Shown: positions 3,385-15,300 of the stretch, piece after piece
Numbering within the stretch: the stretch's first letter is position 1
Layout: every line of letters starts with the position of its first letter
Notes under the pieces: generated by a model
The model's input: the letters and a program-made list of their open reading frames with translations, nothing else
What the model was told of the DNA's origin: nothing
Databases searched by the model: none
Program-made: the position numbers and the translations under genes
NCBI GenBank assembly: GCA_000442015.1
Contig: KE561045.1
Coordinates: 56,453-76,452 of the forward strand
From: Rozella allomycis CSF55
Taxonomy: Eukaryota
DNA: 20,000 nt
Direction of reading: 5' to 3'

Positions 3385-5983
3385 ATGAAGTTGGGATTTC
3401 AAGTAAAAATATTTGTGAAGAAGAAATTAGTTAACAAATATATTTGGGCAACCATACACTTCGAGCAATATAGTATTTACGTCGCCAACAACGATAGTTA
3501 CAGCTACATCTAACAGGGTGACGACTATGGATTTACAGGCACAGACATCTGTTACGTTTCCATACGAGCTTCCAACCAGAATAGTAAAGCTGGCGTGTTA
3601 TGGAAATTTAATTATGGCAGTTGATAGCGAAGGTCATTGTGCATGTTTGCATAGACTGAGTGGAGCTTGTTTGGCATGGTTAACTTTGACTATGCCGGTT
3701 AATGCAATGGCGTTTAGTCCCGATGGAAAGTAATGCATATTTAAGGTGATAATAGTTATTTGGCTATTGCATGTGGAAAGTATATAGAGATCTGGCAGCC
3801 ACCAAGTACCACAAAAAAGTCATTTCAACCATTTACAAAGATCAATACCTACGGTGGACATTATGACAATATCACTTCTCTTTCATGGTCTTTGGATTCA
3901 AAATATTTACTGAGCGGAAGTCAAGACATGACGGCTAGAATTTACATGGTAGAGAATAGGGAATTTAAGAACTTGACACTCGCTGCGATGAGAGATGTTG
4001 TAATTGATGTATATTTTTCATCTACATCGGAATATGTAAATGAATTAAATTTAATTTGATAGATTTATGTTGTTACAAGAGATGGAACTTTATTTATATG
4101 GAAATTTGATTCAGAATTGGAAGATGATTTTGCTCCGATTTACAAGGGTAGGTATGAATTAGCCAATAAGCATTATTTCAAAGTGGATAAAGTTTCTTCA
4201 TCTTCTTTTAATTCAAAAACAAATATTCTTTGTGTTGGATTTCAGAATGGATCATTTTCACTTTATGAAGTCCCCGATGTGAATCAAATCCATTCTCTCA
4301 GTTTAAATCAAAATAAGATTGATGCTGTGCAAATGAATACGAATGGGGAGTGGATAGCTTTTGGTTGTTCTTCCTTAGGTCAGTTGGTTGTTTGGGAATG
4401 GCAATCGGAAAGTTTTATTTTAAAGCAACAAGGTCATTCCTCTTTAATAAACGCAATTTGCTATTCTCATGATGGCGACATTTTGGCCACAGGAGGTGAC
4501 GATGGAAAGATAAAATTGTGGAATGCATTGAATGGTTATTCTTTTGTAACTTTTGATGATCATTCAAGTTCTGTCACTGGATTGGTTTTTACTAAAAATT
4601 CTAAAGTTGTTGTTTCTTCCTCTCTTGACGGAACAGTCCGCGCATTCGATACTACAAGATATCGAAATTTTAAAACATTTACTAGCCCTGAAAATCGCCA
4701 ATTTTCGTGTGTAACTGTTGATTCAGCTGGTGATATTGTTATTGCTGGTACAATGGAAGGAGAAATTTATGTATTTGCTATGCAGACTGGAAATTTACTT
4801 GAGATTCTTTCAGATCATCAAGGTCCTGTATCCTCTGTTGCTTTCGATCCAACTGGTACAATATTGGCTTCTTCTTCATGGGATAAAACAGGTAAAATGT
4901 TTCTGTATATTTAAAAAAGTGAAATTATGGAATGTTTTCGCAAAGAATGGGAATAAGGAGTCCTTTGATTGTCAATCTGATGTTCTTTGTGTGGCTTGGC
5001 ATCCTAATGGTCTAGAATTGGCGTCCGCTTCTTTGAATGGCGAGATAACTTTTTGGAATACTGAATCTGGTCAACAAATTGGTTTCATCGAAGGCCATAA
5101 AGATATTTCCGGTACTAGAAGATCAACTGATTTGGCTAGAGTGAAATTTCAGCATTTCAATTCTCTACAATACAGTTTAGATGGACACATTTTATTAGCA
5201 GGTGGTCAAAGCAACTTTATGTGTCTCTATGATGTAGATAACAAAGTCCTTTTAAAGAGATATGAATTGACAAAAGACAAGAGTTTGGATGGAACAAAAA
5301 CCATGTTAAATTCTAATAATAAAAACATTGTAGACACCGATCCATTATACGACAGGAAATTACCAGGGGTTCAAAAGGGTAACTTATCTGCCAAGAAGAC
5401 TGAGATTCATGTTACTGACGCTTCCTTTTCACCATCAAATGATTCTTTCTGTGTAACCACCCCGCAAGGCATTTATATTTTCGGGAGACATCAAGCAATG
5501 AAATTTGATCCATTTGAAATCGATGTTAACGTGACCCCTGAAGCTGTTCAATCTGCTATTAATCAAAACCAATTTGGAAAGGCTTTAATTATCTCACTCA
5601 GATTAAGTGAACTGCATTTAATTTCAAATGTTTTCAATGCTATAAATCAATCTGAAATACAGAGCATCGTTTCCTCATTGCCTCAATCTTATGTTTATCC
5701 ATTATTGTCACATCTTGCCTATGAATGGGAAACTTCAAAAAGAATTGAATTTTTATTGTCTTGGCTATTTTTTATCTTAAATATTCATCGTCCAAAGAAT
5801 AAGATCCTGCTGCAACGAATTCTTTCTAGAGTCCAGCACTATTATAAGAATTTACAACCTTTGGTTGATAAAACTAGAGGAACATTAAAATATCTTCAAA
5901 CAATTATAGAATTGGAAAAACAAAGAAGACAATTGGAACAAGTTTTATTGGATGATGAAGACGAATTCAATCCAGACGATTAA
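3385..5983 (+). CDS. PWP2: Periodic tryptophan protein 2 (Pwp2/Utp1), WD40 subunit of the SSU processome, ~829 aa
   Basis: Exons 3385-3402, 3431-3729, 3756-4035, 4063-4891, 4920-5983 (introns 28, 26, 27, 28 nt) total 2490 nt in frame. Hallmarks: LGQLVVWEWQSESFILKQQGH, DGTVRAFDTTRYRNFKTFTSP, LPGVQKGNLS, FDPFEIDVNVTP and a Utp12-type C-terminus. Confidence 0.95.
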
Positions 5984-6089
5984 CCAATAAATTATTNAAA
6001 AGGAATGCATCATTGATTCTGAAAAGACTAGCATAAGCATTTAAAACAAATATGTGTTTGGATTTAGAAGCTTTGTTAGGCTTGGCAAC

Positions 6090-7619
6090 ATGTCTATTCC
6101 GTTTTGCAACATTTGCGTCTTAGAGAATGTCCATCTAGATATAACAGCTTCGGAGGTGTGTCAAATAATAAATGATGGATTTAAAAAAGCTCCATATGGT
6201 CTGCAGGCATCAGCAGAAGTGTTTGCAGTGTTTACGGAACCATCGGGTGTAAAATATGCATTGTTTTCTTGGAACACCGGGCCTAGATTCGATATGCTAA
6301 ATGAAGAACGCAGCACGTGGTCCCTTTTTCAGTACAAAAAACGTGCATATAGATACTATGCTCGACCCGAGAAAGATCGGCACAGAAAGTTTTTTGAAGC
6401 TTGTGTTTCAGCGCCGGCATATTTGTATGTTGAATTTGAAAGAGAAGCCATCACCTTTGAACAGTTAGTTGCAAAGTCTAAGGAGCTTTCTGGCCTTCTT
6501 ATGGTGCACAAGGTTTTCTTTCACACCCAAGATTTGCTAAGTGAAGAGGTGTTGAATATTCTAAAGTTCTCTCTTAATGCGTCCTTCCAAAGTGTGCGAG
6601 ATTTAGTGAAAGTGCACTTTGAAAGTGATGAAAATGTTCCTCTTGATTCACATTTTCTACAATTTTTGTCTCCTGAGGACCAAGATAAAGTTCTAAGAAA
6701 CGATAATTACATGCATGCTATTAGAGATGGTATTGTTGATGTTCCCTTTAACCCATCAGAGAACAGGGGTGCCACGATTGTAGAGAGCGCCTTTAAAAGT
6801 GAAGTTGACCAAATGGCAGCAACGCACAAACGTCTATTTGCCAACGAATTGAAGATTGTGCAGAATTTGGTTCCTTATTCGTTGCTCGAAAAATGTACAT
6901 CAGGAGACGATGCGTCAATTCACAACGGGCATTACTTTAATCCTTTGGAAGTCGGCAAAAGTTTGGTAGGTCTTAGTGTGAAGTCTGCAGAAAATTTTGG
7001 CATACCAGGAATAACCATAGCAAACTCGTTCCTAAAGTTGCACGACAACATTTATAGGACAGTGACTTTATTGGAGGGGAATGTTTCAGAGTCGTATATT
7101 CGAGGGAATTTCACGTCTTTATTAGTAGATGCATTTACGCCTTGGTTGTTGGATAAAGACCAGAAGCCAAATGTCGTTCTTCGTGAGTATGATTCCAAGG
7201 TCACGTGGTGGACTCGAAGCCATATGCAAATGTGGGATGCCTCCATCCATTGTATAGACAAAAAAACAAAGGTGCGAAGAGAACCAGTGCTGATAGTTGA
7301 GGAAAAAACCGTTGGGTACAGTCCATCGAACATTATGACATCGAATGTTCCGATTGAAAAATACAACACCAATAATGCGGACATGTTAAAAAATCTTCGG
7401 GCAGCGAAAATGTTATTATTGAGAAGAGCTGATAAAGATGCGCTTCAAGTAGCCGTGCTTTTCCAGGGTTTTGAATACAGAATTTTCTTTTGTTCTTTGC
7501 TATCGAACAATGTTTGTGTTGCGACAGAAGTGTGCAGTGAAACTTTAGTTGATGAAAAATTAAAAAGCAAGCCAACATATCAAAACTTTTATCAATCAAT
7601 CCTTCCTACTNAAAGGTGA
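6090..7619 (+). CDS. Hypothetical protein with C-terminal PD-(D/E)xK (restriction endonuclease-like) motif; 3' end uncertain because of N at 7611
   Basis: Uninterrupted ORF of ~510 codons. First ATG is at 6090; a weak 26-nt intron at 6054-6079 could instead form a split AT|G start. Motifs WDASI...PVLIVEEKT, DMLKNLRAAKMLL and VAVLFQGFEYRIFF resemble REase-fold domains of Crinkler-type proteins. Family assignment is by eye. Confidence 0.55.
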   Translation: MSIPFCNICVLENVHLDITASEVCQIINDGFKKAPYGLQASAEVFAVFTEPSGVKYALFSWNTGPRFDMLNEERSTWSLFQYKKRAYRYYARPEKDRHRKFFEACVSAPAYLYVEFEREAITFEQLVAKSKELSGLLMVHKVFFHTQDLLSEEVLNILKFSLNASFQSVRDLVKVHFESDENVPLDSHFLQFLSPEDQDKVLRNDNYMHAIRDGIVDVPFNPSENRGATIVESAFKSEVDQMAATHKRLFANELKIVQNLVPYSLLEKCTSGDDASIHNGHYFNPLEVGKSLVGLSVKSAENFGIPGITIANSFLKLHDNIYRTVTLLEGNVSESYIRGNFTSLLVDAFTPWLLDKDQKPNVVLREYDSKVTWWTRSHMQMWDASIHCIDKKTKVRREPVLIVEEKTVGYSPSNIMTSNVPIEKYNTNNADMLKNLRAAKMLLLRRADKDALQVAVLFQGFEYRIFFCSLLSNNVCVATEVCSETLVDEKLKSKPTYQNFYQSILPTXR

Positions 7620-8053
7620 TGGCCCGAATCGATAGAAGCAACAACTTCACCTGCACGAGACATCTATGAGAATGACAGAGATGGGAAATCGTGATGTTCC
7701 TGGCATTATCCTAAAACAATGTCATAATCAAGTTAGAATGAAATGACATGGGTATTGGGTTATCATCAGAAATTTATAGTTCCCGATAAGGAAGTTTAAA
7801 CTTCAACATCCGCTGCTCCATTTTTTTAAATACATCAAACATTTTTTTAATTAAATAACTAATTTTTCTGACCAATTCAGGGCTATGAGCTGATTGTCCG
7901 ACAAATTTCGTTTGTGAATATATTAAAGTTTTAAACAATTCGTGTTCCACGAAGTTTCATGAAATCTCAATTGTGAAAAAAATTAGAATTTCCTTTGTTC
8001 CTCGCGTTTTTATTGCGAAATGGTTTTCTTTGAAACTTAGAAGTTAGAAATAT

Positions 8054-9485
8054 ATGAAATTGTTTTTGATCCAACGCTGCCCCTTTTTTAATTCACTTAC
8101 CGCTAACATTACTTTGAAAAGTTTCATTCAGAGAAGAGACATTTCAAAGATTGCAAGACAATGCCCTATAATGGGCAAGGCTATGGATATGGTTCAAAAA
8201 CATTGCTACAATACCATTCCTCACGCCAAACCTACCTCTCAAAGAAACGAAAGACGAGATTTTTATGAAAGAATATTTTCAAATGAAATTGAAAAGAAAA
8301 AGAAAGATCATAGCTACAGAATATTCAATGAAATAAACAGACTAGCGAATGATTATCCAAAAGCAGAAACAAGTAATACAGATAAAGTAACTGTTTGGTG
8401 CAGTAACGATTATCTGGGAATGAGTAAACACCCCAAAGTATTAAATGCGATAAGGTATGGTTTAATATTGTTATTGTTTTAGAGAAAATATCAATCTTTA
8501 TGGCGCTGGTGCAGGCGGTACGCGAAACATTGCAGGTAATAATTCATTGCACGTTGCTTTGGAGTGTGATTTGGCAGATCTGCATAGAAAAGAAAGTGCA
8601 CTGGTATTTTCTTCTTGTTATGTAGCGAATGATGCAACGTTGAGTACTTTGGCTTCAAAAATGAAAGACTGTGTAATATTTTCTGATGAATTGAATCATG
8701 CCTCAATGATCCAGGGCATTAGACACAGCGGTGCCAAAAAATATGTTTTCCGCCACAATGATTTAGATCACTTGGAATCATTATTGAAAAATGTGGAATA
8801 TGGAATTCCTAAAATTATTGCTTTTGAATCTGTTTATTCAATGTCAGGATCCATTGGGAAAATTCAAGAGATTTGTGACCTTGCGGAGAAATACAATGCT
8901 TTAACATTTTTAGATGAAGTTCATGCTGTTGGAATGTATGGAGAAAGAGGGGCGGGAATAGCAGAAGCCATCAACGAAATGGAAAGAGTAGATATCATCA
9001 GTGGAACACTTGGAAAGGCTTACGGGTTAGTTGGTGGCTACATTGCCGCTAGTGCGAACTTGATTGATATGATAAGAAGCTATGCGCCTGGATTTATTTT
9101 TACAACATCGCTACCTCCATTTATAGCCGCAGCTGCGTCTGCGTCAGTTAATCATCTTAAAGTTTCATCCACGGAAAGAAATCAGCAACAGTTAATGTCG
9201 AAATATTTAAAGAGAAGATTAATGGATGAAGGCATTGACGTTTTGGACAATCCCAGCCATATTGTTCCCATCATGATAAGAGACGCTAGACTGTGCAAAA
9301 AAGCTTCTGATTTATTGTTAAAGAATCATAATATTTATGTGCAAGCTATTAATTATCCAACAGTACCCGTTGGTACGGAGAGACTTAGGGCGACGCCTGG
9401 TCCATGGCACACGGAGGATATGTGTGATCAATTTGTTCAAAGTCTTAAATCTGTCTTGGTAGAATTAAACTTAATAAATGAATAG
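8054..9485 (+). CDS. HEM1: 5-aminolevulinate synthase, mitochondrial, 467 aa
   Basis: Exons 8054-8454 and 8483-9485 (28-nt intron). Motifs [51 protein letters not shown]-lysine [19 protein letters not shown] and [10 protein letters not shown]. The leader has CP heme-regulatory motifs (RCPF, QCPIM). Confidence 0.97.
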
Positions 9486-12345: not shown

Positions 12346-15300
12346 ATGAAAAATTTAAGAGTTTGTTCTACGACTTTTGAATCATTTGAGGGTTCTGTGA
12401 GTGAGGGGTTTATTGTATATACGTATGATAAAAATGCGAGTTATTTGTACCGCGAGAGTGACGGCTGGTATTTGCTGGACAAGGGTGGTAGAATCAAGTT
12501 GGAGCTACCGAATGAGAGTATAGTTTCTGCGCGATATTTGTATTTGAAGGAGAGTGTGTGGGTGTGTTTTGTTGGTGGAGAGATGTATTTAGTGAATAGC
12601 GGGTATGAGAGTGAGTTTGTTGGGAAGATTGAAGGGGGGATTAGATGTGGGAGTACGAGTCCAGATTCTGAGATAATTGCGGTTGTTAGTGGAGATTATT
12701 TGATGATAGTGATGAATTGTGAGTTTGATGTGATAGTTGAGAAGAGTGTGTTGGATGAAGAGGAGAAGGATGCGTTTGTGCAGCTTGGATGGGGGCGAAA
12801 GGAGACGCAGTTTCATGGACGTGCTGGCAAGGAGGCTGCTGTTGAGAAGCGGGAGAGTGTTGATGGGAGTGTTAGTGAGGAGGATGATGGGAGGGTGAGG
12901 ATATCGTGGCGAGGGGATGGAGAGTATTTTTGTGTGAGTTTGATTGAGCCTGTGAGAGTGAAGAGAAGTTTGCGGGTGTTTGATAGGGAGGGTAATTTGA
13001 GGAACAAGAGTGAGGATGTAAAGTATCTTGAGCATTCGCTGGGGTGGAAGTAAGATGTTGATGTAGTTGAGATAGACCGAATGGTAGTTTGATAGCGAGT
13101 ACGCAGAATACGCCCAAGGGAAAGCAGGTTGTGTTTTTTGAGAGGAATGGATTGAGACATGGAGAGTTTGTGTTGAGGGATGATTATTCTGTGTGTGAGA
13201 TTGAATGGAACAATGATAGTTCGTTGTTGCTGTTGGTTTGTGCAAAGGAGGCAGAGTTTAAGTGTAAGGATGATTTGTTTGTGTGAGATAGTGAAGATTT
13301 ATGGGAGTAGCAATTATTATTGGTATTTGAAGCAAGAAGTGAAGATTGATGGAAGAATAATGGATGTGAAGTTTAGTGTAGAAGATAAAAATGTGTTGAA
13401 TATTTTAACAGACAAGGGGATTGAGATGATTGAATTTGAAGAGAAATATTTTAGTGTTGAATCGCGTGTGTTTGTGATTGATGGAAAGAGATTGTTAGAG
13501 ACTGATTATGCAAAGGCGAATATTCCCCCACCGTTTAGTCAAATTGAATATGAAATGAGAGATGTTGTAAAATGTGTTGAATTTAATGAAAATGTTTTTG
13601 TAATTTTACAAGATCAAACCCTTGTCAATTGTGTTACGAAAGAAGAAATATTTAGATTTGAAGGATGTGAAATTAATTGTTTTTCAGTTTTATCAAAAGA
13701 TGAATTTTTGTTGTTTGATTCAAGAAAGAAAGAATTGATTTATTTTAATAGAATTGATTTGATTAAAGTTGGAATGAAGCAAGACATTTTAAACTTTAAA
13801 GGAGAATATTTTCAAACCAAGCAAAGTGTAAACAAAGTTAGAGTTAGAAGGGAAAGGGGAGTTGAAAGAGAAGGGGGAGTTAAAGGTGAAGCATCAATGG
13901 AAGTAGAAGGTGAAGCATCAATAGAAGTAGACGGTACAGCATCAGTAGAAGAATCATCAAATGTTCAAGTTGTTTCAATTCAAATCGTTTATGAATGCAA
14001 TTTCAGAATTGATGATTTCTTTATTAAAGATGAAAAAGTAATTTTGAAAAATAAAGGAAAAATCTTTATTGGAGATTTTCTTTTGATTGAGAATATTAGA
14101 CAAATCTTTTCTACAAGGGATTATTTAATCTTTATAACATTTGAAAATGAATTAATCTTTTATGATTTCAATGAAGATTTTTATGAATTTGAAGATAAAT
14201 TAAAAATAGAAAATGAAATGAGAAAAAGATTAGTTGAAAAAGGTGCCATGATTGTTTGTTATATAAATGATGGCTTAGTCCTTCAAATGCCACGTGGTAA
14301 TCTAGAAACTATATATCCTAGATCTATAGTCATCCTAGCAATTCAAAATGAAATTAAAAACAAAAATTATCTAAAAGCTTTTGAAATGTGTAGAAGACAC
14401 AGAATAGATCTCAACTACCTTGTAGATTACCAGGATATAGATTTGAATCTATTTTCTACACAAATCACTAAAACTGAATATTTAAATCTTTTTATTTCAA
14501 ATCTGAAAAATGATAAATCTAGTTTACAAAAATATTCTTTTCAAAATGAAGATCTATCAGATCCAGAAAAGATTAACAGAATCTGTTCCAAACTGATGGT
14601 TCTATTAAATGATAAAACTGAATGTATTTTGACTTGTCTGGTTAAATTAAACAGAATTGAAGATGCTTTGAAATTAATTCTTAAACATGAAAACAATTCA
14701 AGAGAGAAAATGATTGAATATTTAGTCTTTCTAGTCAACGTTGATTTCTTATTCAATTTAGCCCTTGGCATCTACAATCTAGAATTGGTTCTTTTAGTGG
14801 CTAAATTCTCTCAAAAAGATCCAAAAGAATATCTTCCATTCTTAAACAAAATTAAATCTATCCAAGATTCAAATCTACAAAAATTTCACATCGATGATCA
14901 TCTAAAGAAACACAAAAAAGCTTTATCACATCTCTTCTCTTACTTTGAATCTTCAAATGATTTCTCTCTATTCCAAAATTACACTAAATCTCACAATCTA
15001 TTTTTAGATGCAATCAATCTATCCCAAAATCATCCAAATCTTTTAAATTCAATTCTCATTGATTACGCTAATTCTACTTCTGGTTCCATAGATTCGGCTA
15101 ATGCTTTCTTCTTATCTAACGAAATTTCTCAATCTATAGATCAATTTGTAAACATGGGTTGTTACAAGGAAGCTCTAATTTTAGCTTCATCGAAAGATCA
15201 AGAAAAATCAATCTGTGCAAAATCTATTCCCATTCTCTTGGATCAACACAGAAAAGTTGAAGCAGCTTACCTGTCTTTAGATTACTTGAACGATGTTGAT

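Follow-up and report, generated by a model that had tools for sequence, protein, structure and literature searches.

In the available portion of PMC5289972, which summarises Zhang et al. 2016, the Crinkler/RHS-type (CR) effectors are described as carrying exchangeable N-terminal headers. In the same portion, combinations of a restriction endonuclease (REase) and a kinase account for about one-sixth of the CR C-termini, and the toxicity is assigned to the REase part, as in Phytophthora infestans CRN8, an example of the REase plus kinase combination (van Damme et al. 2012, cited in PMC5289972). The available portion of PMC6131194 reports Crinkler-like proteins of Rhizophagus irregularis (RiCRNs) with CR-REase 5/6/8 and kinase domains, and one RiCRN in which the kinase is out of frame. 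Here we analyse an open reading frame (ORF; 6090..7610, + strand) in a stretch of 20,000 nucleotides from Rozella allomycis CSF55 (GenBank assembly GCA_000442015.1, contig KE561045.1, positions 56,453 to 76,452 of the forward strand; the whole stretch is called the window, and all coordinates are counted from its first letter). The best explanation of this ORF, to which we tentatively give a little less than an even chance, is that it is the 5' part of a gene for a nuclease-plus-kinase protein that is specific to the lineage and resembles, in its construction, the REase plus kinase modules of the Crinkler/RHS-type effectors; membership of that family is unproven. Among the cultured relatives of fungi and microsporidia, Rozella branches deepest, and it lives as a naked cell in the host cytoplasm. 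To our knowledge, almost nothing is known about how it manipulates Allomyces and, if this explanation is true, the nuclease-kinase protein would give Rozella an effector candidate that is concrete and can be tested.

The ORF is a real protein-coding gene. It runs for 507 codons from the ATG at 6090 up to a single N at 7611, is intronless over this length and belongs to a + strand frame that is uninterrupted over 6054..7619, with an in-frame TAA at 6042-6044 and the first in-frame ATG at 6090; given the base composition of the window, 507 stop-free codons would arise by chance with a probability of about 1e-17. The DNA of the ORF is present in 11 of the 15 listed sequencing runs, which come from 8 studies, and its GC content (0.40) is similar to that of the other coding parts of the window. 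The absence of introns is unexceptional because ELP1, in the same window, contains an uninterrupted ORF of 2.7 kb. The closest database match, RKP17509.1 ("hypothetical protein ROZALSC1DRAFT_30688, partial", R. allomycis CSF55), has 507 residues, of which 2 differ from the ORF product. An initial annotation of the window, made by a model from the letters alone, had delimited the gene as 6054..7740; the uninterrupted frame that it reported is real, but the start is at 6090 rather than 6054, and 7612-7740 contains no coding continuation. All peptides quoted in that annotation are located in the ORF product, namely ICVLENVHLDITASEVCQII (residues 8-27), SGVKYALFSW (52-61), YLYVEFEREAITFEQL (111-126), SESYIRGNF (333-341), WDASI (382-386), LIVEEK (401-406), DMLK (431-434) and VAVLFQGFEYRIF (454-466).

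With the ORF product as query, phmmer, run exhaustively against 1.84 billion representative proteins, yielded four matches at E<=0.001, all named Rozella allomycis: RKP17509.1, which is the protein itself, RKP16206.1, a protein that shares a 90% cluster with EPZ34627.1, and a fragment of 136 aa. Residues 247-488 of the ORF product align with residues 2-242 of EPZ34627.1 (O9G_005892, 610 aa; hereafter paralogue B) at 38% identity (E=5e-51), and the last 76 residues of the 136-aa protein are identical to the start of O9G_005892, so that paralogue B reaches back to ORF residue 188. The other relative, RKP16206.1 (paralogue C; 108 aa, partial), is 86% identical to the ORF product, but fuses residues 43-63 straight to 190-271 and lacks residues 64-187; to judge from this structure, it is apparently a degenerate copy. 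The part common to these proteins consists of a conserved, probably helical region (residues 188-330; 6651..7079, + strand), which is present in both paralogues, and a following domain (residues 331-490; 7080..7559, + strand), which is common to paralogue B and shows 38-43% identity to O9G_005892 and its 90%-cluster representative. Profile scans found no relatives in metagenome contigs, prokaryotic genomes or viral contigs, and word-indexed searches with the ORF product, with an alignment of 6 rows (a search that failed to recover even some of the aligned sequences) and with the kinase part of O9G_005892 retrieved Rozella self-matches only, the "longer" and "shorter" length classes being outside these searches, such that a longer annotated form of the gene may be present in the databases. 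By sequence comparison, this is a small family seen in Rozella only. The protein had been described as an orphan; it indeed belongs to no known family, but the two paralogous loci in Rozella mean that it is not one in the strict sense.

The domain spanning residues 331-490 is the candidate nuclease. It contains the elements of the PD-(D/E)xK signature in the expected order, that is, an acidic residue, an Asp and a hydrophobic LIV segment followed by ExK, a pattern that is necessary but insufficient for an assignment to this fold. In the nuclease superfamily, the first acidic residue sits in helix 1, the Asp opens strand 2 and the (D/E)xK lies in strand 3 behind hydrophobic residues, all clustered on an alpha-beta-beta-beta-alpha-beta core. 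The candidate helix-1 acidic residue is E334 in an SES motif (7089..7091, + strand), the candidate catalytic Asp is D383 in a WD motif (7236..7238, + strand), and the candidate (D/E)xK element is E404-E405-K406, after the hydrophobic LIV strand (7299..7307, + strand). All five residues (E334, D383, E404, E405 and K406) are invariant between the ORF product and O9G_005892, which are 40% identical over the alignment as a whole. When residues 321-507 are looked up in the ESM Atlas, PF20516 (PDDEXK_12) is, with a score of 0.78, the closest cluster to bear a family, and nine of the ten best named matches belong to the PDDEXK_12 family or clan. The best 30 matches in the same look-up are, without exception, unnamed Mucoromycota clusters of 170-204 aa with scores of 0.90-0.91; the lead threshold is 0.9, and these scores are leads that come without an alignment or an E-value. 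We consider it slightly more probable than the opposite that the shared domain, of about 160 residues, adopts the PD-(D/E)xK fold.

The second part of the proposed architecture comes from paralogue B. After the shared module, O9G_005892 continues with a helix that is short and conserved, a linker rich in acidic residues and Pro and, lastly, a Ser/Thr-kinase domain of divergent sequence. Its C-terminus matches PF00069 with E=2e-5 and 24.6 bits, under the Pfam cut-off of 31.7, PADLOC kinase models with E-values down to 1.4e-6, a PHROG Ser/Thr kinase family at 6e-6 and kinases in the PDB at E=0.012; furthermore, PF00069 is precomputed for the 90%-cluster representative, and the UniRef name of O9G_005892 is "Protein kinase domain-containing protein". 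The O9G_005892 sequence contains the strings HCDINPSN, DYG and VLIK, and we take them to be the catalytic-loop Asp/Asn, the DFG-type Asp and the strand-3 Lys of a kinase, respectively. Judged by these matches, O9G_005892 has a protein kinase domain, and the elements of the kinase core are in place. The domain layout proposed in the initial annotation omitted this kinase altogether.

Whether the same C-terminus can be assigned to the window gene depends on the DNA beyond position 7610, where contigs of three DNA runs (X1, X2 and X6) and one RNA run (X13) placed on 5900-7800 are informative. Truncated by the gap at 7611, the gene is represented in the window by its 5' part alone. The single N at this position (7611..7611) stands for a genuine break in the assembly, at least 1198 nt wide, that hides the 3' part. 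In run X1, the first 758 letters of a 1632-nt contig (record 6) equal 6853-7610 and are followed by 874 nt unlike the window; in run X6, a 2349-nt contig on the minus strand (record 22) matches 6460-7610 and then extends for a further 1198 nt. The suggestion that the gap conceals the true C-terminus is thus borne out by the 874 and 1198 nt with which these contigs extend beyond 7610. A loose end of 30 letters past 7610 is common to the X1 and X6 contigs, and its in-frame translation is HAVHVFLALR; O9G_005892 has KAIHVFLALR straight after the homologous LP(I/T), with 8 of the 10 residues being equal. Because the first 10 residues past the gap boundary match O9G_005892 to this extent, it is probable that the window gene, too, has a kinase at its end, encoded inside the gap. 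There is no continuation of the ORF protein on the + strand in 7612-8053, all three frames running into stops within 7612-7740, and the apparent ending "NAA AGG TGA" (X-R-stop) is a scaffolding artefact because the X1 and X6 contigs run past 7610. RKP17509.1 ends at the identical residue, and therefore its assembly breaks there too. It is a mistake in any analysis to treat the product of 507 residues as the complete protein, given that both RKP17509.1 and the scaffold end at an assembly break.

Several results weigh against a nuclease-kinase protein of this kind. A loose D...ExK regular expression matches 245 of 5000 composition-preserving shuffles of the ORF product (about 5%), the conservation of the candidate residues comes from only two independent sequences, and the Atlas scores (0.78-0.91) are leads only. 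Pfam yields no family at E<=1 when the whole protein is searched and none at E<=10 with residues 321-507; PADLOC, NCBIfam and PHROGs give no meaningful match to the ORF product and its parts; in the PDB sequences, a search with the ORF product gives no meaningful match and a 2-row profile of the shared module gives none at E<=10. The AlphaFold2 (AF2) model of the whole protein from a single sequence has a pLDDT of 33.5; a second model, of residues 300-507 from an alignment of 5 rows, reaches a pLDDT of 43.7 and a pTM of 0.50 and is worst at the candidate catalytic stretch; both models are too poor to judge the fold by. With this low-confidence model of residues 300-507, Foldseek finds nothing in the PDB at E<=0.001, the best VIA-align match (Z 5.4) is the unrelated lipoprotein LppA, and no endonuclease is among the 50 matches listed. 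On the side of the kinase, the PF00069 score of O9G_005892 is below the cut-off, and the presence of the domain in the window copy is deduced from 10 residues alone. Finally, the three annotated loci of the family are far below the size of typical Crinkler families, and Pfam, in a copy that may lack a Crinkler model, detects neither a Crinkler-type header nor any other family beyond chance level in residues 1-197 at E<=10. Separately from these considerations, the fold matches to fructose-1,6-bisphosphatases, inositol monophosphatases and LppA are weak, concern unrelated proteins and were obtained with a low-confidence model, and no conclusion is drawn from them.

Alternatively, the shared module would be no nuclease at all but a lineage-specific region that serves regulation or the targeting of substrates in a divergent kinase family of Rozella engaged in ordinary signalling, with the E/D/ExK arrangement being coincidental. 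This is the main rival, which we regard as unlikely but serious. It accounts for the lack of any nuclease profile or fold match in all searches and for the frequency of the motif among shuffled sequences, and it agrees with the setting of the gene, which has housekeeping neighbours on the same strand, no terminal inverted repeats (TIRs) or flanking repeats and a GC content like that of the other coding parts of the window. It accommodates less easily the invariance of all five candidate residues at 40% overall identity and the leaning of the named Atlas neighbours toward PD-(D/E)xK. In addition, diverged, rearranged and truncated copies would be unusual for a housekeeping kinase family, and no orthologue outside Rozella is found among the 1.84 billion representatives.

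The copies themselves bear on a different possibility, namely that the family is decaying, repeat-associated or selfish, for example a mobile-element remnant, so that the copy in the window would be non-functional or would only spread itself. Of the contigs placed, 13 of 37 in X1, 9 of 18 in X2 and 2 of 8 in X6 show a likeness to the window of under 95%. The 5' half of the ORF has diverged copies at the DNA level, which lie on 6396-6604 and 6740-6875. The variant contig over 6740-6875 (X1 record 5, X2 record 14) differs by 11 changes, lacks 3 nt at 6792 and, by its sequence, fits paralogue C. Among the joints listed, those between opposite strands are at 6376/6554 in X1, X2 and X6 and at 6604/6901 and 6385/7612 in X1; some copies are therefore rearranged. 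At the last of these joints (X1 record 7), a diverged copy of 7612-7737 abuts, in opposite orientation, an ORF copy that begins near nt 6385 (about residue 99), so that everything ahead of this residue is exchanged. The post-gap stretch itself (7612..7737, - strand), which does not continue the ORF on the + strand, contains an ATG at 7663, from which the frame leads into the gap with MSRAGEVVASIDSGHHL. From this start codon and the 6385/7612 joint, one may conjecture that a convergent paralogue with a different N-terminus lies in the gap.

Both ends of the ORF are marked by assembly breaks; the single Ns at 5997 and 7611, which had been noted as flanking the ORF, are both present. At the upstream N (5997..5997), contigs of X1, X2 and X6 show different loose ends before 5998. 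The adjacent stretch of 39 nt just upstream of the start codon (5998..6036) occurs once within the window, has loose ends behind 6036 in X1 and X2 and diverging flanks in X1, X2 and X6, and is covered by a contig (X6 record 19) with a depth of 5803, although contig depth is not equal to copy number; it is probably a short high-copy repeat located at the assembly break. The breaks at both ends, the high-depth repeat, the diverged copies and opposite-strand joints (6376/6554, 6604/6901 and 6385/7612) on the 5' half and the degenerate look of paralogue C are all in line with a decaying family. Against decay of the window copy stand its 507 stop-free codons and the near-identity of X6 record 22, which is only 4 letters off over 6460-7610; 3 of the 4 are listed, and 1 of these 3 changes a residue. 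Among the differences listed, those from diverged contigs lie between 6279 and 6829, and 6900-7610 has three single-letter ones, of which that at 7293 is I402V, as in RKP17509.1, and those at 7103 and 7283 read as synonymous. As to self-spreading, apart from short matches at chance level, no TIRs or direct flanking repeats were found around the ORF, and there is no transposase, reverse transcriptase or integrase signature in or beside it. We consider it rather improbable that the family is merely decaying or selfish. The earlier characterization of the gene as "multicopy or mobile" therefore holds in its first half, in the form of a small family with diverged and rearranged copies and three annotated loci, and does not hold in its second, there being no TIRs or flanking repeats to indicate a mobile element.

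The N-terminal region (residues 1-100; 6090..6389, + strand) belongs to the non-conserved part of the protein, with paralogue C the only relative that has a piece of it (20 residues). It had been interpreted as a tandem of RRM-like domains that, joined to the PD-(D/E)xK domain, would make an RNA-guided or RNA-targeting nuclease. By eye, residues 8-14, 52-61 and 111-126 loosely resemble RNP2/RNP1 segments and the helix that follows, and the poor AF2 model of the whole protein (pLDDT 33.5) has a helix at 20-33 and strands at 44-49 and 55-60. Nevertheless, at E<=10, no RRM or other RNA-binding family is detected in residues 1-100 or 1-197, where Pfam returns only a chance-level match to Cu_amine_oxidN3 (0.058); the ORF product contains no match to strict RNP1/RNP2 consensus patterns; and residues 1-81 show no similarity to 82-197 beyond an alignment of 6 residues with E=0.53. 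These comparisons weakly refute the tandem RRM interpretation at the sequence level, and the RNA-directed nuclease that includes it appears very improbable. The region, in which neither an RRM nor a Crinkler header is detectable by Pfam, could equally be a beta-grasp-like header.

The genomic context is that of housekeeping genes on the + strand. The upstream neighbour (4117..5983, + strand) is a WD40/Utp12-domain gene of the small-subunit processome type (PF04003 Utp12, E=8e-15, along with many WD40 propeller families), with its stop codon at 5981-5983. A contig of run X6 (record 17) links 5900-5996 to 6078-6114 via 89 letters, compared with 81 in the window, and the ORF therefore truly adjoins the Utp12 gene despite the break at 5997. 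Since only about 106 nt separate the stop codon of this gene from the ATG at 6090, the N-terminus encoded by the ORF is complete. The downstream neighbour is 5-aminolevulinate synthase (8054..9485, + strand; TIGR01821, E=1.2e-151 and 2.9e-22; PF00155), followed by a KA1-type kinase gene and then ELP1. The placement of the ORF between two housekeeping genes, as originally described, is thus correct. No Rfam family is found in 5700-8200. In the RNA run X13, no contig was placed on 5900-7800, and there is no RNA run among the listed runs that hold the ORF.

The window contains five single Ns in total, at 5997, 7611, 12183, 15983 and 17254. The latter three are probably also breaks of unstated size because those at 5997 and 7611 are real breaks, and gene models that cross them, in the ELP1 region, may be incomplete. 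The 5' part of ELP1 (12500-13500, + strand) is compositionally anomalous, with 7-21 C and 74-110 G per 250 nt, a GC skew of +0.57 to +0.72 and codons mostly ending in G or T; the anomalous stretch still matches the first propeller of ELP1 (PF04762, E=1e-49). The skew might stem from a mutational bias confined to this region, from a process akin to editing or from an error of assembly.

Returning to the nuclease-plus-kinase explanation of the ORF, the respective protein might work as follows. The module spanning residues ~188-490 would consist of a helical region and a domain of about 160 residues with the REase fold, in which E334, D383 and E404-x-K406 would be the metal-binding and catalytic residues. 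Inside the gap, the gene would continue as O9G_005892 does, with a helix, an acidic/Pro-rich linker and a divergent kinase. The nuclease domain would cut nucleic acid, either in a target cell, that of the Allomyces host, or in a within-genome conflict; the kinase would regulate or target the nuclease domain; and the non-conserved N-terminal 100-190 residues could serve as an exchangeable header. In this scheme, we infer the nuclease fold and activity, the kinase in the window copy and the effector role. If it is true, the REase plus kinase architecture extends to sequence families that current profiles miss. There is, we estimate, also a small chance of something further removed from the described effectors, an uncatalogued type of nuclease-kinase conflict or effector system that would combine an REase family without profile-detectable relatives, only distant kin, in unnamed proteins of Mucoromycota, and a new, exchangeable header without relation to the Ubl header of Crinklers, its loci perhaps being organized as convergent pairs of paralogues. 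The minus-strand start at 7663 and the 6385/7612 joint suggest such a convergent-pair arrangement, which would break assemblies.

No paper main text naming EPZ34627, O9G_005892, A0A075AWM1 or RKP17509 was found in a search of main texts, and O9G_005892 may already be included in the Zhang et al. 2016 catalogue. Among known protein families, RRM proteins are similar to the ORF product only in that the latter has, at residues 8-14, 52-61 and 111-118, strings with a loose likeness to RNP segments, and differ in that the latter has no Pfam match, no strict consensus and no tandem duplication. PF20516 (PDDEXK_12), which comprises fungal PD-(D/E)xK proteins, shares the order E...D...ExK with residues 321-507 and is the nearest family in the Atlas (0.78); nevertheless, this score is under the lead threshold of 0.9, and hmmscan gives no match to PF20516 for these residues at E<=10. 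The RiCRNs, like the Rozella proteins, come from an early-diverging fungal lineage, and the clusters nearest to residues 321-507 in the Atlas are from Mucoromycota; in contrast, phmmer with the ORF product found no Mucoromycota protein at E<=0.001, and the LFLAK/DWL N-termini of RiCRNs, as given in the available portion of their description, are not seen in the Rozella protein. The out-of-frame kinase of one RiCRN, reported in the same portion, parallels the decay within the Rozella family. The earlier proposal of a Crinkler/RHS-type link is upheld with respect to architecture, the shared domain being followed by a kinase in paralogue B, but not by any sequence match to Crinkler/CR families. 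Unlike CR effectors, the Rozella family comprises only about three annotated loci, shows no motifs of the LxLFLAK/HVLVxxP type by eye and no demonstrated Ubl header, and contains an REase part that is a candidate only. The likeness to CR effectors lies in the layout, with a variable N-terminus, a candidate E/D/ExK domain and a kinase in O9G_005892 and probably in the window gene, and in the fact that a parasite has a family of this kind, small and diverging, some copies of which are rearranged.

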